A stretch of 355 bases of DNA from assembly GCF_003334355.1 (NCBI RefSeq), contig NZ_QOWP01000112.1. The stretch is one strand, 5' to 3'. How positions within the stretch are numbered: the stretch's first letter is position 1; each line of letters starts with the position of its first letter. Source of the DNA: Escherichia coli. GTDB taxonomy: Bacteria > Pseudomonadota > Gammaproteobacteria > Enterobacterales > Enterobacteriaceae. The translations under genes were made by a program, and so were the position numbers. Positions 1-355 of the stretch are shown here, one piece after another. The notes below the pieces were generated by a model. The model worked only from the letters and a program-made list of their open reading frames with translations. It ran no database searches and was not told the DNA's origin.

Positions 1-355
1 TGAATTTGACCTTGCGGCTTAACTGTCGCTGAAGTCTCGCCAGCGTCTTCTGGTTTTTCTGAAAACTGTTTACAGGCTCAAAGACTGTGCCATCTGACAG
101 CGTGGCGAGTTTAGCCACGCCAGCATCCAGCCCGATCATTGATGCTGAAGGGTGAACCGGAGTTGATACTTCACTTTCTGTCTGAATACTGATGTACCAC
201 TTACCGCAGGACTGGCTGACAGTGACATTTTTCACAACACCCGTGACCTGACGGCTGTTCCGGTAGCGCATCCAGCCCAGTTTCGGCAGAAAAATACGGC
301 TGTTTTCCTGATCGAGCTTAACGCCCTGCGGGTAGCGGAATGCATCATTCTGTCC
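1..355 (-). CDS. tnpB: IS200/IS605-family TnpB (OrfB) RNA-guided endonuclease, internal fragment; both ends lie outside the window (N-terminal side beyond 355, C-terminal side beyond 1)
   Basis: Seen in sequence: the minus-strand frame phased to position 355 (first full codon 353-355, last 2-4) is open for 118 codons. All three plus-strand frames hit stops within the first 32 nt (tga 1-3, taa 20-22, tga 30-32) and the other two minus-strand frames also contain stops. Established knowledge, from memory: the translation carries TnpB hallmarks, namely FRYPQG (complement of 323-340), a basic/aromatic KLGWMRY segment (complement of 263-283), the beta-strand-like CGKWYISIQTE, the RuvC-I motif IGLDAGVAKLATLSDG, and the following LARLQRQLSRKVK segment. 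No alignment was run. Confidence 0.85.
116..136 (-). other. tnpB: RuvC-I catalytic motif coding segment (IGLDAGV); putative catalytic Asp codon gat = complement of 125-127
   Basis: Seen in sequence: the reverse complement of 116-136 reads atc ggg ctg gat gct ggc gtg = I G L D A G V. Established knowledge: TnpB and Cas12 RuvC-I motifs have this hydrophobic-G-hydrophobic-D-x-G form, with the Asp as first catalytic residue. Assigning this particular Asp as catalytic is inference by motif position. Confidence 0.7.

Follow-up and report, generated by a model that had tools for sequence, protein, structure and literature searches.

An internal insQ/tnpB fragment of IS609 in Escherichia coli, with the element's ends, its tnpA remnant and a predicted ωRNA scaffold

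A fragment of a transposon-encoded nuclease gene raises the question of where the rest of its element lies, and whether that element retains what an RNA-guided TnpB would need. We address this question for a 355-nt stretch of E. coli DNA (the window, positions 1 to 355). The original prediction, made from the letters of the window alone, placed a tnpB gene on the minus strand, its 3' end, the ωRNA and the right end of an IS200/IS605 element to the left, and tnpA and the left end to the right. We conclude, with a probability of roughly 0.9, that the window is an internal piece of the insQ gene of IS609, a member of the IS200/IS605 family, and that the element most likely works by the established TnpB-ωRNA mechanism.

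The window and the InsQ protein

Minus-strand frame 0 (355 to 2) is the sole open frame of the six, the other five containing several stops, which bears out the predicted strand. The 118-aa translation of the window matches the NCBIfam model NF040570 (TnpB; E=4.8e-23, 82 bits, profile positions 129-242 of 389) and corresponds to residues 107-224 of the 402-aa InsQ/TnpB. The nucleotide sequence of the window agrees at every position (100% identity) with genes annotated as insQ ('RNA-guided endonuclease InsQ/TnpB family protein') in many E. coli genomes. Of 5,426 complete genomes of this species, 4,885 contain it; the median is 2 copies per genome and the maximum 7. A further 524 plasmid records and a small number of phages carry it too. 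Features outside the window were read from public loci carrying a 100%-identical window, namely L001 (ydcO/ydcL) and L002 and L003 (yidH/glv), and their coordinates were carried over from L001/L002 (window position equals locus position minus 4000); identical loci occur at no fewer than two chromosomal sites. The parts of insQ are as follows.

2 to 355, minus strand: internal fragment of insQ, codons 107-224 of 402 (single open frame, 100% identity to insQ, NF040570 match)
125 to 127, minus strand: codon of the RuvC-I catalytic aspartate, D183, in the motif IGLDAGV (conserved in relatives; ISDra2 TnpB alignment)
2 to 190, minus strand: N-terminal half of the Pfam OrfB_IS605 (RuvC) domain, residues 162-224 (PF01385 spans residues 162-277, E=2.3e-34)
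191 to 355, minus strand: InsQ residues 107-161, between the N-terminal HTH and RuvC domains (aligns with ISDra2 TnpB)
673-671 (GTG start) to -533..-535 (TGA stop), minus strand: whole insQ coding sequence (extrapolated from L001/L002)

In all three loci insQ begins with a GTG codon 318 nt rightward of window position 355. Its TGA stop finishes 536 nt short of position 1 on the left side, so that tnpB, far from ending within a few codons of that position, continues leftward for 178 further codons, and its 3' end falls several hundred bp to the left as anticipated. D183 lies 45% of the way along the 402 residues, in keeping with the expectation that RuvC-I would sit roughly mid-protein.

The full-length protein has the features of a complete TnpB. 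It scores 380.7 bits against NF040570 guided_TnpB (cutoff 100) over profile positions 1-388 of 389, and its Pfam layout comprises HTH_OrfB_IS605 (PF12323, residues 1-48), OrfB_IS605 (PF01385, 162-277) and the TNB zinc ribbon (PF07282, 304-370). The RuvC triad of D183, E267 and D363 is intact, two CxxC pairs are present (C334xxC and C353xxC), and the RuvC-I aspartate is kept by nearly all full-length InsQ relatives. InsQ matches the ISDra2 TnpB structures 8H1J and 8EXA with E~5e-55 over residues 3-372. Its dN/dS ratio is 0.08-0.35 in every comparison, pairs with dS>1 included, and by this measure insQ is under purifying selection. An 'IS609' TnpB has been purified in a screen of TnpB orthologues, where it was not the most active of nine candidates (PMC12781874).

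Ends, insertion site and tnpA of IS609

The element is IS609, already catalogued and annotated, and the original prediction's positions were correct but ordinary. The record of E. coli K-12 MG1655 lists 'insertion sequence:IS609' at 1503161-1504908, 1,748 bp, with the same terminal bases as the element found here. The two are the same element, identical in length, in both ends and in gene content (yncK plus insQ); the L001 element differs from the K-12 copy at 8 of 1,748 bases and the window at 2 of 355. Nothing substantial separates them: the window comes from another strain, and the identical window is also present at yidH/glv. The features that define the element are these.

-578 (579 nt left of position 1), minus strand: right end, last base (...GGATGTCAA) (L001/L002 comparison, empty allele, K-12 annotation)
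1169 to 1121, minus strand: left end, starting CCGGTGCGCC, with its hairpin at about 1153-1134 (L001/L002 comparison, empty allele, K-12 annotation)
1174 to 1170, minus strand: TAM, TTTAT (empty and occupied alleles)
-579 to -598, minus strand: candidate guide (TATCGGTTTCTGTCAGCGAT at ydcL/ydcO, TTTGCGCTATGATACCCATC at yidH/glv)
681 to about 1109, plus strand: tnpA pseudogene (yncK), a Y1/HUH gene a few bases beyond the insQ start

Several comparisons converge on these ends. Similarity between L001 and L002 ceases at ...GGATGTCAA on the tnpB 3' side and begins at TTTAT/CCGGTGCGCC on the other, and on plasmids from Klebsiella, Salmonella, Serratia and Burkholderia the resemblance of diverged copies ends at the same base on the 3' side. 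The terminal bases are near-invariant among relatives (GTAGGAATCC, the hairpin, then GGAGGATGTCAA), with unrelated sequence beyond them in every case. A junction probe finds the ydcL/ydcO site unoccupied in about 2,044 E. coli genomes, while roughly 3,300 carry IS609 there. The empty allele of the type strain reads GCGCTTTTTAT/TATCGGTTTCTG. When the empty form, GCGCTTTTTAT/TATCGG..., is set against the occupied form, GCGCTTTTTAT(CCGG...GTCAA)TATCGG..., there are zero duplicated bases. One split alone fits both alleles, and the element therefore runs from CCGG... to ...GTCAA over 1,748 bp, inserted 3' of TTTAT without target duplication. For the yidH/glv copy there is no empty allele among 5,426 genomes, in none of which its left and right flanks adjoin. 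At other places the right flank runs on into yidI, with the left flank over 640 nt distant (L002/L003 3295-3465 and 5171-5245). This ties the insertion to a deletion or rearrangement and makes the copy unusable for defining ends.

Read in the orientation of tnpB, the order is TTTAT, the left end with its hairpin, tnpA on the opposite strand, insQ, the structured 3' region, the right-end hairpin, ...GTCAA and the flank. Terminal inverted repeats are absent; both ends carry subterminal imperfect hairpins, CCCC(A/G)TCC-TTCA-GGGCGGGG on the left and CCACGTCC-TTCA-GGGCGTGG on the right, with the same TTCA loop. Both ends thus lie where they had been placed, the right one to the left of the window with a subterminal hairpin, and the left one to its right at about 1169, with a hairpin and next to the short TAM-like TTTAT. 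Across the IS609 family, with the left ends of relatives located by local alignment, the flank consensus at the left end is TT[T/G]A[T/C]. Four plasmid copies (L004, L005, L009 and L010) are mostly fragmentary elements.

The flank 3' of the right end differs in every copy, as expected if the guide derives from flanking DNA; the segment listed above is a candidate guide. At ydcL/ydcO (L001 3396-3425, plus strand; window about -575 to -604), IS609 sits inside the stop codon of ydcO. That gene ends in ...RNR and a TAA stop in the empty allele, and in ...RNRY when the site is occupied, with a TGA stop taken from the complement of the element's terminal TCAA. As the insertion lies within the ydcO stop, the candidate guide there is antisense to the 3' end of ydcO.

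The tnpA gene is transcribed divergently from tnpB, a layout conserved among relatives. L001 has a premature stop in this gene, which leaves 95 aa; L002 and L003 carry a frameshift plus a stop, and the K-12 counterpart is the pseudogene yncK. Scanning species-representative genomes yielded 80 relatives at 58-94% protein identity, and 35 of the 60 with enough upstream sequence have an intact 138-aa TnpA with the HUH motif and catalytic Tyr; one such protein scores 149 bits against NF033573 ('IS200/IS605 family transposase', cutoff 55). The prediction of an HUH-motif ORF of 130-150 aa to the right of the window is therefore right as to location, and as to length in intact relatives, while the gene is dead in the exact-match copies that were read. 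The alternative of an IS1341-like solo-tnpB element lacking tnpA fails, as a tnpA remnant of ~430 nt is present between the left end and insQ. With tnpA present but dead, the exact-match copies are non-autonomous forms of IS609, and belong neither with intact IS605-type elements nor with solo-tnpB elements of the IS1341-like kind. A yedK-adjacent IS609 in E. coli GF161 (L093, 2003-2500) has an open tnpA frame that keeps HUH and Tyr and has lost its stop codon (TPG followed by a stop becomes TPGQ...). PGAP labels this tnpA a pseudogene, and it might be a source of TnpA in trans.

Dead transposase genes are what one would expect if the chromosomal copies were decaying relics, with insQ and the 3' structure intact only through short elapsed time and nothing functional. 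Along with the stops and frameshifts in tnpA of the three loci, such decay would fit the truncated tnpB ORFs seen in several relatives (L022, L023, L024 and L029), and the copies are 98.4% alike over the tnpB side, which allows a recent origin. However, the purifying selection on insQ holds in all comparisons, including pairs with dS>1. Between the same two copies, moreover, the tnpA side diverges by 3.6% and the tnpB side by 1.6%, so that the former has changed more than twice as fast. The catalytic residues and the covarying RNA helices described below are all retained, the 402-aa frame is open in the copies read, and IS609 holds a fixed position in roughly 3,300 genomes. We regard decay without function as unlikely.

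The same combination of a tnpA-dead copy at a fixed position in the majority of E. coli genomes and an insQ under selection, together with a guide segment antisense to the 3' end of ydcO, could also suggest that InsQ has been domesticated for a host function, either TldR-like RNA-guided regulation or defence against incoming DNA. Known exapted TnpBs of the TldR type have lost their RuvC catalytic residues, whereas InsQ keeps D183, E267 and D363. The guide differs at each insertion site, like that of an ordinary mobile copy, and 1 to 7 copies per genome, with further copies on plasmids and phages, are what a mobile element typically shows. An open tnpA frame with HUH and Tyr, moreover, is kept by at least one E. 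coli copy. We regard domestication as very unlikely.

The structured 3' region

A TnpB of this kind should be encoded alongside a scaffold RNA, predicted here to overlap the 3' end of tnpB and the right end of the element. The region can be divided as follows.

at least -409 to -578, minus strand: predicted ωRNA scaffold (covariation, extrapolated from L001/L002)
-409 to -425, minus strand: helix H1 (3'-end alignment)
-440 to -456, minus strand: helix H2 (3'-end alignment)
-462 to -466 with -499 to -503, minus strand: helix H3 (3'-end alignment)
-470 to -472 with -490 to -492, minus strand: helix H4 (3'-end alignment)
about -518 to -535, minus strand: stop-codon hairpin (forms in nearly all relatives)
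-548 to -569, minus strand: terminal hairpin H5 (3'-end alignment)

The structure was derived from an alignment of 47 non-redundant 260-nt 3' ends from elements at 58-100% protein identity. Conserved structure occupies the last ~170 nt of the element, covering the last ~125 nt of tnpB and 43 nt past its stop. RNAalifold proposes 35 pairs on the 47 ends, 18 of them with compensatory double changes. A five-helix model of 29 pairs has 96.8% of its cells paired, compared with 44-56% in controls whose partners were shifted by 1-3 columns, and 132 double-change cells compared with 6-24 in these controls; none of 500 shuffles reaches any observed measure of this model. RNAalifold also joined columns 59-62 to columns 333-336 in long-range pairs, but compensatory changes are nearly absent from these, and they were excluded from the model. 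H2 is not reproduced in the single-sequence MFE fold.

Strong covariation is seen in H2 and H4, both of which are located within the tnpB reading frame at 90-150 nt from the end of the element. Covariation of helices within a coding frame and away from the DNA hairpin of TnpA argues for a role as RNA. The stop-codon hairpin forms in nearly all relatives from differing sequences, and at high divergence the final 168 nt of insQ have a dS about half as high as the remainder of the gene. By these signs the region appears to be, as expected, an ωRNA scaffold that overlaps the tnpB 3' end and the right end, its covarying structure being present both in the 100%-identical loci and in the 47 relatives. 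The left flank of those loci holds the whole series that had been foreseen, a tnpB stop, a structured region and a subterminal hairpin.

Known RNA families offer a further comparison. At gathering thresholds Rfam returns nothing at the element and only istR elsewhere. A permissive search yields sub-threshold matches on the tnpB strand over the insQ stop codon, to HgcC, RAGATH-18 and sot0042; the IS609 3' region scores 22.2 for HgcC (RF00062, gathering 50), 25.4 for RAGATH-18 (RF03064, gathering 44.9) and 15.5 for the sot RNAs (RF02656, gathering 88). HgcC and the sot RNAs are documented as RNAs from tnpB 3' ends (PMC4615843), and RAGATH-18 is a known TnpB guide RNA motif (PMC11061315). The terminal hairpin of IS609 has the UUCA tetraloop described for sotRNAs and HgcC in PMC4615843, and the invariant CCUGU...GCAGGAA helix of the IS609-type RNA matches the RAGATH-18 core (PMC11061315). 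From E. coli K-12 RNA-seq, PMC4615843 also reports a transcript that overlaps a tnpB 3' end in the sense direction; the tnpB concerned is not necessarily insQ. Literature searches on insQ plus sRNA returned no reports, and the IS609-type RNA is not a curated member of any Rfam family.

H5 has to be read separately from the other helices. TnpA proteins of the IS200/IS605 family recognise subterminal DNA hairpins, as in IS608 and ISDra2, and H5 is also such a hairpin, so its covariation cannot tell a role as RNA from a role as DNA. That the entire 3' structure consists only of single-stranded DNA signals for right-end recognition by TnpA, with no RNA scaffold, would suit H5 and the left-end hairpin with its matching TTCA loop, but is very improbable: H1-H4 and the stop-codon hairpin are set back from the end by 60-170 nt, in the tnpB frame, and covary independently of H5; the left end has no counterpart of them; the region has the sub-threshold matches to Rfam families recognised as TnpB guide RNAs; and solo-tnpB relatives without any tnpA keep the whole structure.

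Two further observations concern the same region. In some betaproteobacterial relatives (L057, L059, L060, L079 and L090), the tnpB stop falls inside the loop of the terminal right-end hairpin, 17 nt from the end, so that protein tail, RNA scaffold and transposon end overlap almost completely. In many plasmid copies of the insQ 3' end, similarity starts or breaks off near L001 3490-3493 (window about -507 to -510; query positions 228-231), which suggests mosaic elements or a recurrent break inside the ωRNA region.

Proposed mechanism, related systems and alleles of the ydcL/ydcO site

In the empty allele at ydcL/ydcO, TTTAT is followed by the same 25 nt that are found 3' of the right end in the occupied allele. 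This pairing of TTTAT with a guide match fits the arrangement required by the TnpB homing model. Under that model, a transcript running over the tnpB 3' end into the flank would be made into an ωRNA with the conserved structure as scaffold and ~16-20 nt of flank as guide. InsQ would bind this RNA, and its RuvC site (D183, E267, D363) would cut DNA that has TTTAT beside a guide match, which at ydcL/ydcO would be TTTAT followed by TATCGGTTTCTGTCAGC. The DNA cut would be the seamless joint left after excision by TnpA, or an unoccupied allele, and repair from an occupied copy would restore the element. Gene identity, catalytic residues, ends, TAM, RNA structure and selection are established by the present analysis, while we infer RNA production, binding of the RNA by InsQ and DNA cleavage from characterised relatives. 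With tnpA dead in the copies read, no excision joint would arise in cis, and InsQ may be without a target in the genome that encodes it.

A more speculative idea is that the tnpA-dead IS609 at ydcL/ydcO acts as a self-protecting allele, with InsQ-ωRNA aimed by its own flank at the empty allele (TTTAT followed by TATCGGTTTCTG...), which is present in about 2,000 other E. coli genomes. We consider it distinctly unlikely. If it were true, incoming DNA with the empty allele would be cut and converted, giving a gene-drive-like bias at ydcL/ydcO without a transposase, and the antisense overlap of the guide with ydcO would be a by-product.

Related systems place IS609 among familiar elements. The reference RNA-guided TnpB is that of ISDra2 from Deinococcus radiodurans, whose TnpB-ωRNA structures are 8H1J, 8EXA and 8BF8. 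Like InsQ, it is a protein of ~400 aa with the RuvC D/E/D residues and a zinc ribbon, and both elements have a scaffold over the tnpB 3' end, a guide from the flank and a 5-nt T-rich TAM, those of IS609 being predicted. The TAM of ISDra2 is TTGAT, which also occurs at some IS609-family relatives, while the E. coli element has TTTAT. In ISDra2 tnpA lies in tandem upstream of tnpB, unlike the divergent tnpA of IS609. IS605 and IS608 of Helicobacter pylori resemble IS609 in pairing a Y1 HUH tnpA gene, a pseudogene in the exact-match IS609 copies, with tnpB, in their subterminal hairpins at both ends and in inserting 3' of a short T-rich motif without target duplication. IS605 has divergent tnpA and tnpB. 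The right end of IS608 finishes in TCAA, as does that of IS609, and its target motif, TTAC, differs from that of IS609. Unlike in IS605 and IS608, tnpA is inactivated in the E. coli IS609 copies that were read.

Much of this was already known: IS609 and its ends are annotated in K-12, the product of insQ already bears the label of a putative RNA-guided endonuclease, and how TnpB works with its ωRNA has been established, so that the importance of the window is slight beyond its correct annotation. Three modest additions can be made. The first is a covariation-backed secondary structure for a predicted IS609-type ωRNA, which scores below the threshold of every Rfam family. The second is the TAM as read from empty sites, TTTAT, with its family consensus, and the third is the occurrence of the ydcL/ydcO site in E. 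coli as IS609, IS200C and empty alleles. A site with three alleles is a natural setting for testing TnpB-mediated homing in a model organism.

IS200C is another IS200/IS605-family element, found at this site in L006 (NZ_CP023820, 520-1245). Its insertion point falls 2 nt upstream of that of IS609, within the T-rich tail of the ydcL terminator. Subtraction puts the number of genomes with IS200C at the site at ~90 (2,134, a count that includes empty alleles, minus about 2,044 empty). In E. coli HH45 (L008, 107-150) the ydcL/ydcO site reads TTTAT, 18 G's and then just the last ~24 nt of the IS609 right end, which is probably an assembly artefact and possibly a large internal deletion. Finally, a 135-nt segment of the filamentous phage If1 (U02303.1, 1501-1635), inside ORF348, is 97.8% identical to window positions 1-135, and may represent either insQ sequence captured by the phage or chimerism of an old record.
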